Positions 815 to 11,927 of a DNA stretch of 64,000 nt are shown piece by piece. Source of the stretch: Mobula hypostoma (lineage: Eukaryota); NCBI RefSeq assembly GCF_963921235.1, contig NC_086107.1, positions 114,764,001 to 114,828,000 of the forward strand, read 5' to 3'. Within the stretch, counting starts at the first letter, position 1; each line of letters begins with the position of its first letter. The notes under the pieces were generated by a model. It saw nothing but the letters and a program-made list of their open reading frames with translations, was not told the DNA's origin and did not search any database. A program made the position numbers and the translations under genes.

Positions 815-910
815 CCAGTGGAATTAGTTTGGGGACTGACACGGGGCTGTGGAGAGAGAGCAGGGCAGTGGGATTAGTTTGGGGACTCACATGGGCCTGT
901 GGTAAAAGGC
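815..910. repeat. ~50-bp minisatellite type B (ggattagtttggggactgacacggggctgtgg...), 2 units
   Basis: Same unit as 8105-8880 and 11385-11530. Confidence 0.7.
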
Positions 911-988
911 CGGGCGATGATATGAGTCGAGCAGGTATAAAGGACTGGGTGTCTCTTTCTCTCTCCACTGGCCTTCTTCTCGTTCCAG

Positions 989-1137
989 TTTGCCATCGTA
1001 CAATACTCCGCGCTTGTCAGGACAGAACTGAGCTTTAAAACGTTCCAGGCCCAACGGAAGAATCTGCGTAATATCGTGAATAACATCCAGCTGATGGAGA
1101 GTGCAACCTATACCGCAACTGGGATCAATTTTACCAT
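989..1137 (+). CDS. VWA/integrin alpha I-domain gene, domain 1 exon B (FAIVQYS...TYTATGINFT)
   Basis: Acceptor ttccag, donor gtaact, 149 nt, phase 0-2. Translates FAIVQYSALVRTELSFKTFQAQRKNLRNIVNNIQLMESATYTATGINFT, matching the I-domain QYS and TxTATGI motifs. Confidence 0.92.
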
Positions 1138-1152
1138 GTAACTAAAACGTGT

Positions 1153-1645
1153 CCGGGAGTGTGTGATGGGACAGTGTGGAGGGAGAATCACCCTGTGTCT
1201 GACCCCGGGAGTGTGTGATGGGACGGTGTGGAGGGAGTTTCACTCTGTGTCTGACCCCGGGAGTGTGTGATGGGACGGTGTGGAGGGAGTTTCACTCTGT
1301 GTCTGACCCCGGGAGTGTGTGATGGGACGGTGTGGAGGGAGATTCACTCTGTGTCTGACCCCGGGAGTGTGTGATGGGACGGTGTGGAAGGAGCTTCACT
1401 CTGTGTCTGACTCAGGAGTGTGTGATGGGACGGTGTGGAGGGAGCTTCACTCTGTGTCTGACCCCGGGAGTGTGAGATGGGACGGTGTGGAGGGAGCTTC
1501 ACTTTGTGTCTGACCCCGGGAGTGTGTGCTGGGACGGTGTGGAGGGAAATTCACTCTGCGTCTGACCCCGGGAGTGTGTAATGGGACGGTGTGAAGGTTA
1601 TTTCACTCAGTCTGACTTCAGGAGTGTGTTACGGGACATTGTAGA
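1153..1645. repeat. 52-bp minisatellite type A (ccccgggagtgtgtgatgggacggtgtggagggagtttcactctgtgtctga), about 10 units
   Basis: Directly visible tandem units at 52-bp spacing in the B-C intron. Confidence 0.95.
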
Positions 1646-1909
1646 GGGATGTTTTCCAGTATTCTGGGAATAATTTAACACATTCCTGTCTTCTGACTGC
1701 GAATATTTGGATGGTGTGGTTACCATCGCACTGTGTGACGGCACTGGAAGTGACAGGTCACTGTTTGTTTACGGGTGAGTTTTCTGAGGTCTGTGTGATG
1801 GGGAAGGGGACAATTGTGTGGTGTGTGGTCCCTACCAGAGGGGATCAGGGGAGGAGGGAGCGTGATCTCCTATTCCTGATGTGACCTTCCTCCCTCTGGT
1901 GCTGTGCAG

Positions 1910-2063
1910 AAACAGAGTGTTCACTGAGGAGGCGGGGGCGAGAGAAGGTGCGAAGAAGGTCGTGATCGTGATCACGGATGGAGCGACCACACCAGGAGAT
2001 ATCAATGTGACCGAGGTCATCAGGAATGCTCAGGAGAAAGGGATCTTTCGCATTGCAATTGGG
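1910..2063 (+). CDS. I-domain 1 exon C (NRVFTEEAGAREG...ITDG...IAIG)
   Basis: Acceptor tgcag, donor gtatgt, 154 nt, phase 2-0. Contains GAR and VIVITDG (MIDAS Asp). In frame with exon 989-1137. Confidence 0.92.
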
Positions 2064-2847
2064 GTATGTACCCCTCGTTTGGGAGGGAGATCCGTGTGGG
2101 TCGGTGATGGACATCCACGTGGGAGGTGTGAGAATCACTGCCATAAATATACCCTTGGTCTCCACGGTCCTGTACAGCAACAAATCCCACCAATTCATCA
2201 CCGTCTGGCTGTAGCAGTTGCTCCGTGTCTGAGTTCTAAATAGTCGCCCCTACTTTCTGAGGTTGTTCCCAGGTCTGATTGCTTCCGAAGTGCAAGCAGT
2301 GTTATACTGCTGACCTTTTAACCCGTGTCGTAAATATCTCTTATACCGAATGTCAGTCTTCTGGAATATAGTTTATTATTTGTTAATTTATTTATGGTCA
2401 TATTACTTCGTGTGTTGTGTGTGCTGCGTTCTACTCCTTGGTCTGAAGGAAGGTTGTTTGATTTAGCACTACACATACATAAGGTTGAACGACAATAAAG
2501 TTGAACTTGAGATCCCAGACTCTCCCACTACTGGAAATACTCTCTCCATGTCAACTTTGTCCAGGCCATGGGAAGGTTGTGATGAGAGCCCGTCCCACTC
2601 TAGTTTCAATCTAGTCCCAAACTTGTGCCTCTGCCAACTTACCTGCTCCGCAGTGTCTCTTTTGCTGTTGGATGCTCCCGATAGAGTGATTTCTCCTGTC
2701 TTGTTTCTGACCCACACTGACTCGGTAGATGTTGCCACCATGACGTCCACCCTGTCTGCAGGGACAATATCTCTGATTAGCAATGCTCTGGCTCTCCCCT
2801 ATAAAACTGAGACTGTGAGCCGGTTTCCAATTCTACTATGTTCACAG

Positions 2848-2992
2848 GTTGGAGATAGTTTCGAGAAGGGCAGCAGGGGTCTGAGTGAGCTGACCACCAT
2901 CGCCTCATGCACCAGATGCCTGATCAAGATCAAGGATTATTCTCTACACTCTGTCCTCCAGGATGTCCAGTCCAAAATCGACACAATCGATG
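2848..2992 (+). CDS. I-domain 1 exon D (VGDSF...ELTTIASC...KIDTID)
   Basis: Acceptor ttcacag, donor gtgagg, 145 nt, phase 0-1. Resembles the last I-domain exon of beta2-integrin alpha chains (VGDAF...ELxTIAS...KIFAIEG). Confidence 0.9.
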
Positions 2993-4055
2993 GTGAGGGT
3001 GGCAACCTGGAGTGTGGGGCTTTGCACGGGACACGTCTCGCTCCCTCCATCTCCATCTCTCATGTTTGTTTGTCCTTCCTTCCAGTCCCCTCCATTACAC
3101 TCCAGTATTTCTGATCCTCACCCTCTATCTATCCCTCACTCACCTCCACCCTCCCTATCCCCTCCATCCCTTCAGCCACTCCACCTGTCCCCCTCTGCTC
3201 CTGTTCTCTCCATTCCTCCCTCCTATCCAATCCTCTTCCCTCCATCCTTGCTCTCCTCCATCTCTCTGTTCTTCTGTTCCCTACTCTCCATCCCCAAACC
3301 CAATTTACAACAGGAAGTAGGAAAGCCCGAGTCAAAAAGGGAATGTTATCATAGTCATGGGAGATTATAACATGCAAGTCAATTGGGAAAATCAGGTTGG
3401 TAACGGATCTCAAGACAGTGAGTTTGTTGAATGCAGAAGAGATGGCTTTTTAGAGCGGTTTGTCATTGAACCAGCTAGGGGATCAGATATACTGCACTGG
3501 GTGTTATGTAATGAACCAGAGGCAATTAGAAAGCTTAAGTGAACCAGTGATCATAATATGATTGTGTTCAACTTGAAATTTAATAGGAAGAAAGTCTGAT
3601 GTAGCAGTATTTCAGTGGAGTAAGGGAAATTACAGTGGTATGAGAGAGGAGTTAGCAAAAGTAAATTAGAAGGAGCTGCTGGCAGGGATGTTTCTGGGAA
3701 AAATGAGCAAAGTGCACGACATGTGTATTCCAAAAATGAAGAAATACTCAAATGATAAAATAGCACAACCGTGGCTGACAAGGGACGTCAAAGCAATTGT
3801 AAAAGCAAAAGGAAGGGCATACGACAAAGCAAAAATTAATTGGAAGATAGAGATTGGGAAGTTTTAAAAAAAACCTACAGAGAGCAACTAATAAATTATT
3901 GGCAGGAAAAAGATGAAATATGAAAACAAGCTGGCAAATAATATCAAAGTGGATGGTAAACACGAGGAATTCTGCAGATGCTGGAATTTCAAGCAACACA
4001 CATCAAAATTGCTGGTGAAAGCAGCAGACCAGGCAGCATCTCTAGGAAGAGGTAC

Positions 4056-4091
4056 AGTCGACGTTTCAGGCCGAGACCCTTCGTCAGGACT
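4056..4091 (-). ncRNA. Minimal type I hammerhead ribozyme (Penelope terminal repeat)
   Basis: Minus strand reads AGTC-CTGACGA-AGGGTCTCGGCCT-GAAAC-GTC-GACT: complete catalytic core, helix I AGTC/GACT, short helix II. Confidence 0.75.
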
Positions 4092-4881
4092 AACTGAAGG
4101 AAGAGTGAGTAAGAGATTTCAAAGATGGAGGGGGAGGGGGAGGGGGAGGGGGAGGGGGAGATCCAAATGATAGGAGAAGACAGGAGGGGGAGGGATGGAG
4201 CCAAGAGCTGGACAGGTGATTGGCAAAAGGGGATATGAGAGGATCATGGGACGGGAGGCCTAGGGAGAAAGAACGGGGGAGGGGGGAAACCCAGAGGATG
4301 GGCAAGGAGTATAGTGAGAGGGACAGAGGGTGAAAAAGGAGTGAGAGAAAATGGTCTCCTTCGCAGACCATTTTGCTGAACACCTACGCTCTGTCCGCCA
4401 GAGAGAGCAGGATCTCCCAGTGGCCACACATTTTAATTCCACATCCCATTCCCATTCTGATATGTCTATCCACGGCCTCCTCTACTGTAAAGATGAAGCC
4501 ACACTCAGGTTGGAGGAACAACACCTTATATTCTGTCTGGGTAGCCTCCAACCTGATGGCATGAACATTGACTTCTCAAACTTCCGTTAATGCCCCTCCT
4601 CCCCCTTGTACCCCATCCATTATATATATTCTTTTTCCCTCTCTCCTTTTTCTCCCTCTGTCCCTCTCACTATACCCCTTGCCCATCCTCTGGGCTTTTT
4701 CCCCCCTTCCCCCTTTTCCTTCTCCCTGGGCCTCCTGTCCCATGATCCTCTCATATCCCTTTTGCCAATCACCTGTCCAGCTCTTGGCTCCATCCCTCCC
4801 CCTCCTGTCTTCTCCTATCATTTCGGATCTCCCCCTCCCCCCGCCCCACTTTCAAATCTCTTACTAGCTCTTCTTTCAATT

Positions 4882-4917
4882 AGTCCTGACGAAGGGTCTT
4901 GGCCCGAAACGTCGACT
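4882..4917 (+). ncRNA. Minimal type I hammerhead ribozyme (Penelope terminal repeat)
   Basis: AGTC-CTGACGA-AGGGTCTTGGCCC-GAAAC-GTC-GACT. Predicted cleavage after C4913. Confidence 0.8.
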
Positions 4918-7065
4918 GTACCTCTTCCTCGAGATTCTGCCTGGCCTGCTGCGTTCACCAGCAACTTCAAAGTGGATAGTAACAGTTTTTTCAAGTTTGT
5001 TAAAAATGAAAGAAATATAAATGTGGTTATAAGACTGTCAGAAAATGAGGCAGGAGAAATAATAGCAGGGGACAAGGAGACGGCTGTGGAACTGAATGAG
5101 TATTTTGCAACAGTCTGCACTGTGAAAGACACCAACAGTATGCCTGATGTTGTAGTGAGTGAAGGAAGAGAAGTGGGTGCAGTTGCTGTTACAAGAGAGA
5201 AGGTGCTCAAAAAGCTGAAAGACCTAACAAGTCACTTGGACCAGAGGAACTGCACCCTAGGGTCATGAAAGAGGCAACATTAGAGATTGTGGTGGCAGTA
5301 GAAATGTTCTTTCAAAAATCATGGTGCCAGAGGACTGGAAAATTGCAAATGTCACTCCAGTCTTTAAAAAAGGAGGAAGGCAGCAGAAAGGAAATTATAG
5401 ACCAGTTAGCCTGACCTCAGTGGTTGCAAAAATGTTGGAGTCAATTGTTAAGGACGAGGTGATGGAGTACTTGGTGACACAGGACAAGGTAGGACAAAGT
5501 CAGTATCATGTCCTTCAGGGAAAATCCTGCCTGATGAACCTGTTGGAATTCTTTGAGGATATTACATGTAGGATAGATAAAGGGGATGCAGTGGATGTTG
5601 TATATTTGGACTTTCAGAAGGCCTTTAACAAGGTGCCACACATGGGGCTGCTTACCAAGTTAAGAGCCCACAGTATTATAGGAAAGTTACTAACATGGTT
5701 AGAGCATTGGCTGATTGGTAGGAGGCAGCCAGTGGGAATAAAAGGATCCTTTTCTGGTTGGCTGCCAGTGACTAGTGGTGTTCCATAGGGGTTGGTGTCT
5801 GGACCACTTCCTTTTAATGTTGTATATCAATGATGGAATTGATTACTTTGTTGCCAAATTTGCTGATGATTTGAAGATTGGTGGAGGGGCAGGTAGTGTT
5901 GAGGGAACAGGTAGGATGTAGAAGGATTTAGAAAGATTAGGAGAATGGGCAAGAAAGTGACAAATGAAATGCAATGTTTGGAAAATGCATGGTCAAGCAC
6001 TTTGGTAGTAGAAATAAATGTGCAGACTATTTTCTAAACAGGGAGAAAATCCAGGAATCTGAGATGCAGAGGGACTTGGGAGTCCTTGTCCAGAACACCC
6101 TCAAGGTTAACTTGCAGGTTGAGTTGGTGGTGAGGAAGGCAAATGCCATGTTAACGTTCATTTCAAGAGGTCTAGAATACAAGAGCAAGGATATTATGCT
6201 GAGGCTTTATAAGGCAGTGGTGAGGCCTCACCTTGAGTATTGGGAACAGCTTTGGGTCCCTCATCTTAGAAAAGATGTGCTGGCATTGGAGAGGGTCCAA
6301 AGATGATTTCAGGAATGAAAGGGTTATCATACGAGGGACGTTTGATGGCTCTGGGTCTGTTCTCTCTGGAATTCAGAAGGATGAGAGGGGACCTCATTGA
6401 AATCTTTTGAATATTGAAAGGCTTAGATAGAGTAGATGTGGAAAGGATGTTTCCCATGGTGGGAGAGTCTAGGACAAGAGGGCACAGCCTCTGGGTAGAG
6501 GGGCGCCCTTCCAAAACAGAGATGCAGAGAAATTTCTTTAGCCAGAGGATGGTGAATTTGTGGAATGTGTTGCCACATGCAGCTGTGGAGGCCAGGTGGT
6601 TGGGTGTATTTAAGGCAGAGATTGATAGGTTCTTGATTGGACATGGCATCAAAGGTTACGGGGAGCAGGCCAGGAACTGGGGTTGAGGAGGAGAAAAAAA
6701 AGGATCAGCCGTGATTGAATGGTGGAGCAGACTCAATGGGCCAGATGGCCTAATTCTGCTCCCATGCCTTATGGTCTTATAGTCTAACTCACTCCGTCCC
6801 ACTACCCTCCATCATTCTCCCCTCTGTTCCATCCCTTCCCCCTTCCCGTCACTTCCCCCCACACGTCAGGGACCTCTTCATCATCTTTCCATCAGTGTAA
6901 CACTCCCTCCTCATCACAACCTCCCTCAATGGGTTGCTCCCTCTTCACCGCCAGTCCCTCCTTCAGCGTGACCATTCCTCTTTGCTGCACCTCCATAGTC
7001 ATGATGCTCCCTCTTCGTCGTTGGCCCCCTCTCTCACCCTTTGCTGCTCTCCCTCTCTCTGCCAG

Positions 7066-7193
7066 AGTGTACCGCTGAGATGGTAGATGTGGTCTTCCTC
7101 TTCGATGGGTCCAACAGCTTCACCAAAAGAGACCTGGAGGCGAACAAAAAGTTCATGTTGAATATGATGCAGGCGTCAGGTGCCAACACGCAG
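7066..7193 (+). CDS. I-domain 2 exon A with MIDAS DxSxS ([18 protein letters not shown]...)
   Basis: Long polypyrimidine tract with gccag acceptor, donor gtcagt, 128 nt, phase 1-0. Contains [11 protein letters not shown]. Joins exon 2848-2992 in frame. Confidence 0.92.
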
Positions 7194-7294
7194 GTCAGTG
7201 ACGGACAGGGGTGTGGTCAGGGGTGGGAAGGAGCAAGGGGGGGGATTGGGTGTGAGAGGAGAGAGAGAGAGAGAGAGAGAGCAGAACAGTTAAA

Positions 7295-7790
7295 TAGAAT
7301 GGATAATGAAGATGCATATATCAGGATGCTCTTTATTGACTACAGCTCAGCATTCAATACCATCACCCCCTCAAAACTAATCAATAAGCTCCAAGACCTG
7401 GGCCTCAATACCTCCTTTTGCAATTGCATCCTCAATTTCCTCTGTTGCAGAGCCCAGTAGATCGGATTGGCATCATCTCCTCCACAGTCTCCATCAGCAC
7501 AGAAGCACCAGAAGCTGTGTGCTCAGCCCCTGCTCTACTCACGTTACCCCTATCACTGTGCGGCTAAGCACAGCTCCAACACCGTAGACAAGTTTGCTGA
7601 CGGCTCCGCTGTTGTAGGTGGGAGACTGGAAATCTGGTTGAATGGTGCTACAACACCAACCCCTCAGTCAGCGCCACCAAACTGAAAGAGCTGATCATTG
7701 GCTGCAGGTGCAGGAGACTGGAGGTCCACGGACCAGTCCTCATTTGGGGATCGGAGTTGGAGAAGGTCAGGGTCAGTTCCTTGGTGTTCT
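7295..7790 (+). mobile_element. Rex1/Babar-type LINE RT fragment
   Basis: [16 protein letters not shown] and KFAD motifs, frameshifted. Confidence 0.75.
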
Positions 7791-8104
7791 AATTCCAGAG
7801 GATTTTTAGGCCAAACAGCACCTTAATTTGGGTATATTTACATGACAGGTTGATAGGTTCTTGATTTGTCAGGGCATCAAATTCTGCAGGAAGACGAGAA
7901 GAGAATGTGGTTGAAACGGACAATGAACCAGCTGTGATGGAATGGCAGAGCATATTCAATGGGCTGAATGGCCTAATTCTGCTCCTATGTCTTATATGAT
8001 GGAATATTCTGTGCTTACTTTAGTAATAGATTAAGATTTGGCATTTTTACTTTAATTTTGAATAATGGAAACATGGTCACAACAATGTTGTCAATGTGGG
8101 CGAA

Positions 8105-8880
8105 GAGAGAGAGCAGGGGCTGTGGGATTAGTTTGGAGACTGACACAGGACTCTGGGGAGAGAGCGGGGCATTAGGGTTAGTTTGTGGTCTGACACAGGG
8201 CTGTGGGGAGAGGGTGGAGCAGTGGATGAGTTTGGGGACTAACACCGCGCTTTGGGCGAGTGCGGAGCAGTGTGATTAGTTTGGGGAGTGAGACTAGTCT
8301 GTGGGGAGAGTGCGGGCAGTAGTATTTATTTTGGGACTGACACAGTTCCGTGGGATTAATTTAGGACGGACACAGGGCTGTGAGGAGAGAACGTATCAGT
8401 GGGATTCGTCTGTGGATAAAGAACAGGTCGTGGGGCGGGGGGGGTGGGTCAGCTTGTGGACTGACGCTGTGCTGTGGGGAGAGAGCTGGGCACCAGTTTC
8501 GTTTCGGGATCGACACGGGGCTTCGGGAAGGGTACAGGACAGTGGAATTCATTCGGGGATTGCGACAGGGCTGTAGTGGGATTAATTAGGCGACTGACAG
8601 GGCTGTGGGGAGATAGTGGGGCGGTGGGTTTAGTTTGCGATTGATACAGGCCTCTGGGGAGTGAGTGGGGTAGTGGAATTACTTTTGGACTGACGCAGTG
8701 CTGGGGGGAGAGAGCGTGTCAGTGGGATTCTTTTGGTAACTGACACAGGTCTGTCCGAAGAGAGTGGGACAGTGGGATTAGTTTGGGGACTGACACAGGG
8801 CTCTGGGGAGATGTTGGGCAGTGGGATTTGTTCGGGGACTGACACGGGGCTGTGCGGAGAGAGTGGGGTATTCGGATTAG
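8105..8880. repeat. ~50-bp diverged minisatellite type B array
   Basis: Repeated ggattagtttggggactgacacagggctgtggggagagag units. Confidence 0.85.
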
Positions 8881-8944
8881 TCGAGCAGATGCACAGGATG
8901 GGATGGCACTCTCTTCACCAAAGCATTCATCTCTGTCTCAACAG

Positions 8945-9093
8945 TTTGCCATCGTACAATACTCCCTGTATTCCAGAACGGAGATGAACTTTACAACGTT
9001 CCGGACCCAACCAGGGAATCTGCGTGAGATCGTGAATAATTTCCAACTGATGGAGAGTTTGACATTTACCGCAACTGGGATTAATTTTACTAT
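8945..9093 (+). CDS. I-domain 2 exon B (FAIVQYS...TFTATGINFT)
   Basis: Acceptor caacag, donor gtaact, 149 nt. Paralogue of 989-1137, about 36/50 aa identical by manual alignment. Confidence 0.92.
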
Positions 9094-9109
9094 GTAACTA
9101 TTCTGTAAA

Positions 9110-9655
9110 CGGGAGTGTGCGATGGGGTGTGGAGGGAGCTTCACTCTGTGTCTGACCGCGGGAGTATGTGATGGGACGGTGTGGAGGGAGTTTCACTCTG
9201 TGTCTGACCCCGGGAGTGTGTGATGGGACGGTGTGGAGGGAGTTTCACTCTGTGTCTGACTCCGGGAGTGTGTGATGGGACGGTGTGGAGGGAGTTTCAC
9301 TCTGTGTCTGACTCCGGGAGTGTGTGATGGGACGGTGTGGAGGGAGTTTCACTCTGTGTCTGACCCCGGGAGTGTGTGATGGGACGGTGTGGAGGGAGCT
9401 TCACTCTGTGTCTGACCCCGGGACTGTGTGATGGGACGGTGTGGAGGAAGCTTCACTCTGTGTCTGACCCCGGGAGTGTGTGATGGGACGGTGTGGAGGG
9501 AGATTCACTCTGTGTCTGACCCCGGGAGTGTGTGATGGGACGGTGTGGAGGGAGATTCACTCTGTGTCTGACCCCGGCAGTGTGTGATAGGACGGTGTGG
9601 AGGGAGCTTCACTCTGTGCCTGACCCCGGGAGTGTGTGATGGGACGGTGTGGAGA
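9110..9655. repeat. 52-bp minisatellite type A, about 11 units
   Basis: Same unit as 1153-1645, in the equivalent intron of domain 2. Confidence 0.95.
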
Positions 9656-9693
9656 AAGGATCGCTCTGTGACTCTAACACTCCTTCTGCTCAG

Positions 9694-9847
9694 AGACAAT
9701 GTGTTCACGGAGGAAGCTGGGGCAAGGGAGGGAGTAGCAAGACTGCTGGTCCTAATCACGGACGGACAGCCCACACCAGGGGACATCGACCTCAACCAGG
9801 TTGTCGCCAGGGCTCAGGAAAAGCAGATTCTCCGCTTTGTCGTTCGG
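9694..9847 (+). CDS. I-domain 2 exon C (DNVFTEEAGAREG...LITDG...)
   Basis: Acceptor ctcag, donor gtaggt, 154 nt. Paralogue of 1910-2063. Confidence 0.9.
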
Positions 9848-9929
9848 GTAGGTTGATGGGATTTATCACAGTGTGACTGTATGGTTCCCACAGTGTGAGA
9901 GTGTGATACGTCTGTGAGAGAGACATCTT

Positions 9930-9930
9930 T

Positions 9931-9967
<37 letters not shown>

Positions 9968-10048
9968 TGAGAGAGAGACAGAGACAGAAAGAGAGGAAAA
10001 AAGAGATAGAGGGAGAGAGACCGAGAGACAGAGAGAGAAGGATATGTA

Positions 10049-10096
<48 letters not shown>

Positions 10097-10237
10097 TGTG
10101 AGTGTGTGTGTGAGTGTGAGTGTGTGAGTGTGTGTGAGTGTGTCTGTGTGAGTCTGTGAGTGTGTGTGTGTGAGTGTGAGTGTGTGTGTGAGTGTGTATG
10201 TGAGTGTGTGTGTGAGTGTGCGTGTGAGTGTGTGTGT

Positions 10238-10271
<34 letters not shown>

Positions 10272-11092
10272 GTGTGAGTGTGTGAGTGTGTGTGAGTGTG
10301 TGTGTGTGTGAGTGTGTGTGTGAGTGTGTGTGAGTGTGTGTGTGTGTGAGAGTGTGTGTGTGTGTGTGAGTGTGTGTGTGTGTGTGAGTGTGTGTGTGTG
10401 TGAGTGTGTGTCTGTCTGTGTCTGCGTGTGTGTCTGAGAGAGAAAGAGAGAGACAGAAAGAGAGGAAAAAAAGAGATAGAGTGATAGAGACCGAGAGACA
10501 GAGAGAAGGATATGTATGTGAGTGTGTGTGAGTGTGTGAGTGTGTGTGAGTGTGTGTGTGTGAGTGTGTGTGAGTGTGTGTGTGTGTGTGTGTGTGAGTG
10601 TGTGTGTGTGAGTGTGTGTGAGTATGTGTGTGTGTGTTGGAGTGAACATCTGTATTGTGAACGTGTGCGTATCTCCATGTGTGTGTGACAGAGAAAGAGA
10701 CAGAAAGAGAAAGAGAGAGAGAAAAAAGAGATAGAGGGAGAGAAACAGAGAAAGATGTGTGTGTGTGAGAGAGAGGGGGGAGAGGGGGAAGAGGGGGAGG
10801 GGGAAAGGGGGGAGAGGGAAGGGGAGAGTGGGGGAGGGGGAGGGGAGTGGAGGAGGAGAGGAGGGGAGGGGAGAGTGGGGAGGGGGAGGGGGAGAGGAGG
10901 GAAAGGGGAGGGGGAGGGGGAGGGGGAGGGGGAGAGGAGGGAAAGGGGAGGGGGAGGTGGAGAGGGGGAGAGTAGGGGGGAGAGGGGGAGGGGGAGGGGA
11001 GGGGGAGAGGGGGAGGGGGAGGGGGAGAGGGGGAGAGTAGGGGGAGGGGGAGGGGAGAGGGGAGGGGGTGAGAGGGGGGAGGGGGAGGGGGA
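9930..11092. repeat. (TG)n/(GA)n microsatellites followed by a G-rich polypurine tract
   Basis: Direct inspection. Polypurine tract at about 10770-11092. Confidence 0.95.
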
Positions 11093-11156
11093 GCTGTTCT
11101 GTTTGTGTGGACGTTACACAGACAGTTCTGAGGATTGTGAAGTGCCTCTTGTCCAG

Positions 11157-11304
11157 ATTGGATCCTCCATTGAGGCTGACGGTCGGGAGCGGCAGCAACT
11201 GCGGACAATCGCTTCCTGCCCCGACACCCTCGCCATCCTGCGCTGATACGACGACCTCCCGTCTGTTTTAGAGAAGCTGAAGGAAACCATTGGAAGCTTT
11301 CAGG
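11157..11304 (+). CDS. I-domain 2 exon D, with in-frame TGA at 11244-11246
   Basis: Acceptor gtccag, donor gtgaga, 148 nt. Translates IGSSIEADGRERQQLRTIASCPDTLAILR*YDDLPSVLEKLKETIGSFQ. Paralogue of 2848-2992. Confidence 0.85.
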
Positions 11305-11576
11305 GTGAGACTATCCCGCCGTCCCGCCGCCCCTCTAGCCCATACATTGACTTATCCTTCCCCTCGGTATCATTTCCTCTCGCAGTTTGAGATTAAGACG
11401 GGTTGTGGGGAGAGCGCGGGTCAGCAGGATTAGTTTGGGGACGGGGGGTGGGGTGGGGAGAGCGAGGCAATAGGATTGCTTTTGGATTGACATGGGGCTG
11501 TGGGGAGAGAGTGGGGTAGTCGGACTAGTTGGAGAGATGCACAGGACTGTCCCTTTTTCCTCTCTCTCATCTCCAG

Positions 11577-11623
11577 TTTGCGATTTTGGAAGGCGCCATA
11601 TTTGTCGGACCTTTCCAGACTGA
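11577..11623 (+). CDS. Probable terminal coding exon (VCDFGRRHICRTFPD*)
   Basis: Strong polypyrimidine tract with ctccag acceptor. Phase-1 reading gives 15 aa then TGA, with ATTAAA about 95 nt downstream. No transcript evidence. Confidence 0.5.
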
Positions 11624-11716
11624 GGAAGAGATTGCCGTGCACCGAGGCGGCATTCTGGCCGCGTGCAATTGGATACATTGTTTTGTTTTTCTTTGCCACA
11701 AGAGGTTTATTTGGTG

Positions 11717-11722
11717 ATTAAA
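11717..11722 (+). terminator. Candidate polyadenylation signal ATTAAA
   Basis: Common variant poly(A) hexamer downstream of the putative terminal exon stop. Confidence 0.4.
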
Positions 11723-11927
11723 ATGTCACGGCATTACAAAGCTACGGTATTCAATGTCTCTCTCGATTCGCAGACAACGGCGGTACTGGAGCTCCCAGAA
11801 ACCCACCCCATGGTCGCCGAGTGCGCCTTCTGCAGGGACGCGCACACAGTTAGGCACAGCACCGGACGCGACACGACTCCCGGAGAATGGTGGGCAGGGA
11901 GCCCGGGAGAATCCCCGACTTTCAACC

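Follow-up and report, generated by a model that had tools for sequence, protein, structure and literature searches.

Can the alpha-I domain, usually viewed as existing only inside integrin alpha chains and under the control of the beta subunit through helix 7, leave its receptor and persist as part of a separate protein? The question is raised by a gene with two integrin-type I-domains in series in the devil ray Mobula hypostoma (assembly GCF_963921235.1), where we analyzed 64,000 nucleotides (nt) of contig NC_086107.1, positions 114,764,001 to 114,828,000 of the forward strand (the window; unprefixed positions are counted from its first letter, and contig positions carry the prefix C45). An earlier sequence-only reading had described the gene as encoding a possible secreted multi-I-domain protein with no integrin body. 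The tandem gene is real and transcribed, and it is already modelled in RefSeq, hence less singular than that reading held. With a probability of roughly 60%, we take it to be a functional ray gene, in which the I-domain exons of a neighbouring CD11-type integrin were copied, given a leader-like start and duplicated in tandem, and the product of which would be a soluble two-site binder.

The start of the gene lies some 10 kb before the window, which therefore holds the last three quarters of one VWA/I-domain (three of its four exons) and all four exons of a second. The borders of all seven exons, which lie on the forward strand, consist of AG acceptors after pyrimidine tracts and GT donors, and on manual checking the phases fit as originally read. 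Domain 1 is represented by exon B (989..1137, phase 0 to 2, running from FAIVQYS to the Thr loop of the metal ion-dependent adhesion site [MIDAS]), exon C (1910..2063, phase 2 to 0, with ITDG and the MIDAS Asp) and exon D (2848..2992, ending in phase 1, which begins VGDSF and encodes strand F and helix 7); domain 2 comprises exon A (7066..7193, phase 1 to 0, with DxSxS), exon B (8945..9093), exon C (9694..9847, with ITDG) and, in the homologous frame, exon D (11157..11304), which is read through in the model P0007 of the manta ray, M. birostris. All of these, apart from exon A of domain 2, are found in RNA; both exons B as well as exons C and D of domain 2 are supported by translation, while exon C of domain 1 is 100% identical to P0006 and P0055, and exon D of domain 1 and exon A of domain 2 are 100% identical to P0055. 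The short last exon that had been proposed begins at 11577 (11577..11741, forward strand), carries ATTAAA at 11717-11722, and is 3' untranslated region in M. hypostoma and a disordered coding tail in M. birostris. It may be the stump of a third unit, but the evidence is marginal, as the likeness to exon B amounts to the acceptor and about 8 nt (score of 24, against a mean of 16 and maxima of 23-28 for shuffled sequence).

RefSeq covers the exons with seven isoforms in M. hypostoma and one model in M. birostris, under automatic names that are either collagen VI-like or integrin alpha-D-like, and tblastn of these proteins on the window returns exactly these exons. The M. hypostoma proteins match at 100% in exons 2, 3, 4 and 6 (numbered from position 989) and at 88-91% in exon 5, the latter over high-scoring segment pairs that extend past the exon borders. 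The predicted product has a length of about 400-450 residues (models up to 470), arranged as leader, I-domain 1, a link of about 6 residues and I-domain 2; the exon sequences of the two units differ by 20-54%.

Transcription was assessed by aligning read contigs of four runs to positions 900-11800, of which 10000-11091 was skipped as repeats and has no contig; such contigs give neither expression levels nor true ends. Spliced RNA was obtained from two organisms. Run X9 (organism A, presumed RNA) contains a 621-nt contig (record 23) that joins 986-1137, 1910-2062 and 2847-2991, and a 722-nt contig (record 25) that joins 8942-9093, 9694-9846, 11156-11303 and 11576-11741, both with 0 mismatches, while run X17 (organism B) contains a contig joining 9626-9846, 11156-11305 and 11578-11704. 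The joint 9846/7->11156/7 is present in X9 and X17, the last exon is attached by the joint 11304/5->11577/8, and the word depth of the spliced contigs is about 150 in X9 and 73-680 in X17. The claim that domain 1 is spliced directly into domain 2 stands as far as the junction 2992->7066 is contained in all eight gene models; its support in RNA is implied. The 621-nt contig carries 40 further letters past exon 3 and the 722-nt contig 103 letters before exon 5, which are unplaced among the rows listed. An assembly of 31-mers would break off at 7105 and resume at about 7087 in a 43-nt run shared with an integrin paralogue, and since the unplaced 40 and 103(+3) letters fit a break on this run, the 621-nt contig would continue exon 3 into 7066-7105, which is indirect evidence for the 2992->7066 junction in X9 RNA.

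The two domains are integrin alpha-I domains and not A-domains of the collagen VI or matrilin type, as the sequence-only reading had held, and this assignment is based on per-domain scores, trees and exon layout. An isolated I-domain binds an acidic ligand residue through Mg2+ at the MIDAS. The motifs DGSNS, TATG and ITDG are found in the translations of both domains, all five MIDAS residues are conserved in each domain of the two Mobula species as well as in the stingray copy, and T96, T98 and D129 are invariant in our alignment (A1). The best per-domain sequence match in the PDB is the I-domain of integrin alpha-M (92 bits), followed by alpha-X, alpha-E and alpha-L, whereas the best two-domain stretch of collagen VI alpha-3 reaches 84 bits and outscores these only when summed over many domains. 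The AlphaFold model of P0007 contains two confident VWA folds (mean predicted local distance difference test [pLDDT] score of 83.6) and a tail at residues 400-450 that is predicted to be disordered (pLDDT below 50); Foldseek aligns the model with the alpha-M and alpha-X I-domains at template modelling scores of 0.91-0.94 and a root-mean-square deviation (rmsd) of 1.3-1.5 Å.

A difference from the receptor domains is found immediately after helix 7. In integrins this helix is followed by an I/LEGT motif, the Glu of which binds the MIDAS of the beta subunit, so that the downward slide of helix 7 and this internal ligand couple the I-domain to the beta subunit, as set out in PMC12422189. The parental integrin P0204 has IEGT, whereas domain 1 ends in IDEC and domain 2 in FQG., the glutamate thus being Asp in domain 1 and Gln in domain 2; exon D of domain 1 closes with ID at the point where the parent has the IE of IEGT. 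Since Glu is replaced in both domains while the MIDAS is kept, the coupling function appears to have been dropped and the binding site retained.

The likely source of the domains lies on the same contig. Mapping by tblastn in 180 kb around the genome matches placed a cluster of three integrin alpha genes of the CD11 type downstream of the tandem gene, at a distance of 197-373 kb (C45:114972900-115149200; loci L012, L019-L021, L025 and L026), at 114.973-114.979 Mb (minus strand), 115.044-115.064 Mb (minus strand) and 115.136-115.149 Mb (plus strand). The second of these encodes P0204 ("integrin alpha-M-like"), lies about 270 kb from the tandem gene and is the closest relative of the tandem I-domains; it is the orthologue of a 1182-residue "integrin alpha-X-like" protein of M. 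birostris whose I-domain is 71% identical to domain 1. Both the tandem gene and P0204 use four coding exons per I-domain, with junctions after ..GMQ, ..T(I) and ..IG at the same residues (loci L020 and L021 for P0204), and the identity of the tandem domains is 59-71% to the parent I-domain and 59-78% to stingray and devil-ray integrins.

Both domains, together with the copy from the red stingray (Hemitrygon akajei), fall in a chondrichthyan CD11-type clade supported at 96/97 in the first tree and by an approximate likelihood ratio test (SH-aLRT) of 99 in the second, and within it they are grouped with integrins of stingrays and devil rays in a clade of 10 rows (SH-aLRT of 92), outside of which stand the electric ray Narcine and the sharks. 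Both trees were built without bona fide vertebrate domains of collagen VI or matrilin. A Fundulus "collagen VI" and an Alosa "matrilin" that had served as outgroups of the first tree proved to be integrin-type, and its rooting is invalid; the second tree has mollusc VWA domains as outgroups and was built without Xtex_ITGAL, Lmic_ITGAD_d1, Fhet_COL6A6_d1 and Fhet_COL6A6_d3. The branching order of domain 1, domain 2 and the integrin has supports of 63-81 in the first tree and is open in the second, and the stem of domain 2 is long (0.41-0.57). Pairwise synonymous divergence (dS) is 0.41 between domain 1 and the integrin, 0.72 between domain 2 and the integrin and 0.81 between the two domains. 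Exon A of domain 2 has a dS to the integrin of 0.19, compared with 0.47-1.7 for the other exons of this domain, and includes the 43-nt run (7075-7117) that is identical to exon A of the neighbouring integrin (locus L021), which hints at a gene-conversion tract. An 84.5% similarity between introns of the units gives no support to a young age of the duplication, as it comes from shared satellites only and the unique intron sequence cannot be aligned.

Trees, the common four-exon layout and chromosomal neighbourhood thus bear out the proposal that an I-domain cassette was duplicated in tandem, and identify a CD11-type integrin as its source. The protein searches recovered the M. birostris orthologue and the H. 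akajei relative, and as far as these searches show, the tandem gene is limited to stingrays and devil rays. It is not unique in its architecture, as similar tandem I-like proteins occur in teleosts.

No part of the receptor body accompanies the domains. Pfam assigns to P0006, P0007 and P0008 only VWA-type families, with no FG-GAP repeat of the beta-propeller, whereas the control integrin P0204 yields FG-GAP and three Ig-like leg families; no Integrin_A_Ig match was obtained for thigh or calf, and the proteins end after domain 2, with neither membrane span nor GFFKR. Pfam likewise finds in the tandem protein no collagen family (Gly-X-Y triple helix), EGF repeat or coiled-coil family. In the window, tblastn with five integrins (P0058, P0012, P0029, P0028 and P0034) recovers only I-domain exons and transposon pieces, and a scan of the 20 largest or nearby open reading frames gave seven transposon domains (RVT_1, Exo_endo_phos_2 and RNase_H), one ALKBH8_N and 12 without a match. 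The remaining 52 kb, which is mostly transposon remains, accordingly holds no FG-GAP, leg or transmembrane exon, in agreement with the sequence-only reading. Among these queries, P0058 (an integrin alpha-D-like protein of Narcine) is a chimeric gene model whose residues ~775-969 are transposon-derived; this tail has several matches in the window and at least 47 across the Mobula genome, where 47 of 154,909 first-look candidates were scored. Altogether, we found no transcript joined to propeller or transmembrane exons, no grouping of the domains with a known tandem-VWA gene and no division of the two domains between separate genes.

The 5' end of the gene was located by searching the 3.48-Gb genome with isoform X4 (P0055), which placed a leader sequence of two exons at C45:114754067-114754636 and exon A of domain 1 at C45:114762217-114762345, i.e., 1.7-10 kb upstream of the window. 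The upstream contig, to which the sequence-only reading had pointed for a signal peptide or further domains, thus supplies the first exon of domain 1 and, ahead of it, an exon resembling a signal peptide. Leader exon 1 reads ATG..TCCG/gt and is followed by leader exon 2, and exon A has two acceptors that are 5 nt apart. The start of X4, MFPPPSLILFCASAAFSTSG.., is encoded by two exons without a second copy in the genome and contains a hydrophobic core, LILFCASAAF, followed by STSG/Q. It looks like a signal peptide, and MF..LILFC.S.AFS.SG, which is leader-like by eye, is carried by both X4 and the Hemitrygon models. No DNA paralogue of the leader exons was detected in the genome, the sole match elsewhere being that of the satellite within their intron. 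From the MFPPP start, the frame is kept only by leader exons 1 and 2 with the upstream acceptor (X4) or by leader exon 1 with the downstream acceptor (the M. birostris model), and three other M. hypostoma models use an upstream ATG and a different frame of leader exon 1. Between the leader and exon A, a degenerate exon at C45:114760780-114760874 (L010:6780-6874) matches the Cys-rich linker exon of H. akajei (..CGVNGTTCQQ..); in Mobula it has a frameshift, has lost one cysteine and is in no gene model.

In the reading that we prefer, the four I-domain exons of the neighbouring CD11-type (alpha-M/X/D-like) integrin were copied out of the receptor, provided with new 5' exons that encode a signal-peptide-like start, and duplicated in tandem. 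The product would be a soluble, two-site, Mg2+-dependent binder of the types of ligand recognized by the parent leukocyte integrin, and, no longer controlled by a beta subunit, could serve as a decoy or link ligands together. Secretion, ligand binding and the biological role are in each case predicted from the sequence, and nothing in the analysis supports the earlier suggestions of a role in mucus, in venom or on collagen. In comparison with the CD11 I-domains (alpha-M/X/D, and P0204 in the ray), the tandem protein has the same fold, the same MIDAS (DxSxS/T/D), the same four-exon layout and the same neighbourhood; it differs in having two I-domains in series and leader exons of its own, in replacing I/LEGT, and in lacking propeller, legs, membrane span and GFFKR.

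The alternative that survives best, which we regard as possible but unlikely, is that the locus is a transcribed relic, i.e., a partial integrin duplicate that never gained a function or has lost it and is decaying independently in rays, its RNA being noise or at most regulatory. A number of observations weigh against a functional gene, and the most direct is an in-frame TGA at 11244-11246 (forward strand) in exon 7 of M. hypostoma, found in translation. As the 722-nt contig of X9 has 0 mismatches, the TGA is present in RNA as well. The codon corresponds to Arg379 of P0007, and in the AlphaFold model residue 379 falls between strand F (375-378) and helix 7 (381-399), so that domain 2 loses its last helix in M. 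hypostoma; what had been described as a second complete I-domain is therefore truncated in this genome. The TGA is probably the result of a CGA-to-TGA change at a CpG, where CGA is deduced from the Arg of P0007. All seven RefSeq models of M. hypostoma bypass the TGA through an earlier acceptor, at 11122 (35 nt before 11157) or 11143 (14 nt before it), from which exon 7 is translated in another frame until a TAG at 11270-11272 (alternative last coding stretch 11122..11272, forward strand), with the tails of P0054 and P0051 mapping to 11113-11268; neither acceptor was seen in the RNA contigs listed, which use the homologous acceptor at 11157. In the last exon, a 1-nt indel at 11618 between M. 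hypostoma and M. birostris causes a frameshift, and the X17 contig has the corresponding 1-nt deletion at 11618, which is the frameshift implied by the P0007 protein. The Hemitrygon models either enter an intron or end in ..ELTPSPHAPGA, which we read as exon D translated in the -1 frame relative to ..TIASCTRC.., and the red stingray relative thus appears to be frameshifted.

Further observations on the same side come from the 5' end, from RNA and from species comparison. The 5' splicing is untidy, with the second leader exon skipped in three of the seven M. hypostoma models and in the M. birostris model and the full leader present in only one of the seven (X4), so that the many 5' variants are mostly without an intact leader; the upstream Cys-rich exon coded in Hemitrygon is frameshifted and skipped in Mobula. 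Contigs of organism B enter intron 5 from both sides, the joint of exons 5 and 6 being unseen there, and X16 (presumed RNA, organism A) has no spliced contig among the rows listed, which we count as evidence neither way. The two Mobula species differ in their exons no less densely than in their introns, mostly with a change of amino acid, and exon 1 (989-1137) has 12 differences in 149 nt, with 7 residues changed, versus ~3-4% in its flanks. The ratio of nonsynonymous to synonymous divergence (dN/dS) among the domains is 0.44-0.51 at a dS of 0.41-0.81, only moderately below 1 and high for a constrained domain, and no tandem protein of Hypanus sabinus was among the matches, though its integrin appeared. 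The proteins of the two Mobula species are 93% identical in domain 1 and 96% identical in domain 2, compared with 93% in the parent I-domain and 95.2% in the whole integrin; since the parent I-domain diverges equally, the species comparison cannot separate relaxed from adaptive change, and the rate does not discriminate between a relic and a functional gene. Exon B of domain 1, which carries the MIDAS Thr loop, has about twice the difference density of its flanking intron, and when the stingray copy and the integrin are used for reference, the changes prove to be spread over both lineages.

On the other hand, open frames, splice sites and all MIDAS residues have been kept across a dS of 0.4-0.8, and MAFFT aligned the three domain sequences over 190 of their about 190-191 codons with no more than one codon indel. 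The dN/dS of 0.44-0.51, being below 1, also counts on the side of function. With an indel-to-substitution ratio of about 1:10-20, neutral decay at such a distance should yield several indels. Both domains are intact, in an open frame, in M. birostris (P0007). The lesions are at the 3' end and differ between lineages, and therefore look recent. The word depth of the spliced contigs also speaks against a relic. The M. hypostoma copy is either an allele that has been truncated or a gene in the first phase of its loss, and in this species the tandem gene may be starting to decay. The form without helix 7 might be unstable or might instead be locked open, by analogy with engineered truncations, in which case the devil-ray allele could represent a naturally "open", high-affinity form.

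A functional gene derived from a CD11-type integrin is also preferred over an ordinary member of the tandem-VWA matrix family (collagen VI or matrilin/cartilage matrix protein). The RefSeq names, and the top whole-protein scores to multi-VWA proteins such as collagen VI alpha-3 in searches of the PDB and of representative proteins, would fit such a membership, and collagen VI and matrilin A-domains share with the tandem protein the VWA fold and the tandem arrangement; collagen VI-type domains are, moreover, held to be ancestors of the I-domain in PMC12422189. We nevertheless consider this membership very improbable: (i) the whole-protein scores are summed over many domains at 25-30% identity, per-domain similarity is lower than to integrins and alpha-M is the best match per domain; (ii) stingray and devil-ray integrins are 59-78% identical, and the tree places the domains inside the integrins; and (iii) triple helix, EGF repeats and coiled coil are missing, each domain has four exons, and the gene lies beside a cluster of three integrins. 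Least credible of all is that the gene belongs to something larger, as a tandem-I-domain integrin with a body outside the window or as an assembly artefact that doubled the cassette, for although the window begins inside the gene and multi-I-domain integrin models exist elsewhere (Scleropages P0089 and Pristiophorus P0009), the upstream sequence holds only two leader exons and exon A of domain 1, the nearest integrin exons lie ~197 kb downstream on the opposite strand, the 722-nt X9 contig stops at 11741, ~20 nt past ATTAAA (contigs being weak evidence for a transcript end), and the 20-54% divergence of the units, together with the same structure in the independent M. birostris assembly, argues against a doubling by assembly.

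Proteins of comparable architecture are known from other lineages. PTMP1 of the mussel byssus (PDB 4cn8, 4cn9 and 4cnb), a collagen-binding protein, is the best Foldseek match to the whole model (E value of 3.6e-29) and, among the top matches, the sole solved protein composed of just two tandem VWA domains; it is a secreted binder, and it differs in sequence (20% identity), in domain arrangement (rmsd of 11.6 Å), in belonging to a mollusc lineage and in not being integrin-derived. Closer parallels are small tandem I-like proteins of teleosts, namely those of Alosa (P0139), Hemibagrus (P0175), Hoplias (P0171), Sardina (P0199 and P0176), Labeo (P0107), Clarias (P0092) and Fundulus (P0011), which bear names such as "matrilin-1-like", "cartilage matrix protein-like" and "collagen alpha-6(VI)-like". 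Like the ray protein, they have at least two VWA domains and almost nothing else (P0199 also has fn2), as judged by Pfam for five of the eight (P0011, P0139, P0175, P0171 and P0199) and by BLAST domain spans and names for P0176, P0107 and P0092; the starts of P0139 and P0171 resemble leaders. Among solved structures, the teleost proteins come closest to the I-domains of integrin alpha-E (178 bits) or alpha-M (153 bits). Unlike the ray protein, they nest in teleost clades of the tree, with an independent origin from teleost alpha-E-, alpha-L- and alpha-X-like integrins. All of these look-alikes are so far gene models, of which P0011 is fragmentary and consists of near-identical repeats.

Searches of an open-access library, including PMC4237329 and PMC12422189, gave no description of a free or tandem I-domain protein, nor of the teleost look-alikes, which is weak evidence of absence. 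I-domains may have been released recurrently in teleosts. We put forward as a tentative and rather doubtful extension that fishes have repeatedly liberated the alpha-I domain, rays and several teleosts having independently made secreted tandem I-domain proteins, which would together represent soluble binders of a class so far unrecognized, dependent on metal and either competing with leukocyte integrins or complementing them in the complement system, adhesion or the recognition of pathogens. Extra I-domain material is also found inside integrin bodies: P0089 (Scleropages) has three VWA domains with FG-GAP and an Ig-like leg, P0172 (Larus) has two VWA domains, and P0009 (Pristiophorus) repeats exons C-D before propeller sequence. 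These could be real internal duplications or errors of model or assembly.

Several types of repeat occur in the noncoding sequence in and around the gene. A 52-bp minisatellite occupies a corresponding position in the B-C intron of both units (1153..1597 and 9110..9654; 8.6 and 10.5 copies with 93-95% matches), and its word depth in reads, in the tens of thousands, marks it as a high-copy genome family. A 49-bp satellite (..GGGGACTGACACAGGGCTGTGGGGAGAGAG..) is found at 811-940, 8107-8881 and 11400-11530, in each case ahead of an exon B or of the last exon, while the intron before exon 7 contains, at 9900-11100, 1.2 kb of (TG)n/(TGTGAG)n followed by (GGGGGA)n. Most of the 4 kb of the inter-domain intron (3300..6780) consists of the remains of a LINE-type retroelement with an RVT_1 match, which include an inverted pair of ~340 nt (4006-4351 versus 4633-4967, 87% identical); sequences related to these remains recur in the window at 31.7-33.0 kb, 49-50 kb and 56-58 kb.

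To conclude, genes of this type carry misleading names in RefSeq, for instance "collagen alpha-3(VI)-like" or "cartilage matrix protein-like". If functional, the tandem gene would provide a ready-made soluble form of the ligand-binding head of a leukocyte integrin, which could reveal the ligands of I-domains in cartilaginous fishes and could show how a decoy or opsonin originates from a receptor and how phase 1-1 exon cassettes are reused, along a route that the teleost look-alikes suggest to be a recurring one. If it is only a decaying by-product, it would offer a clean case of gene birth and early death beside the parent.

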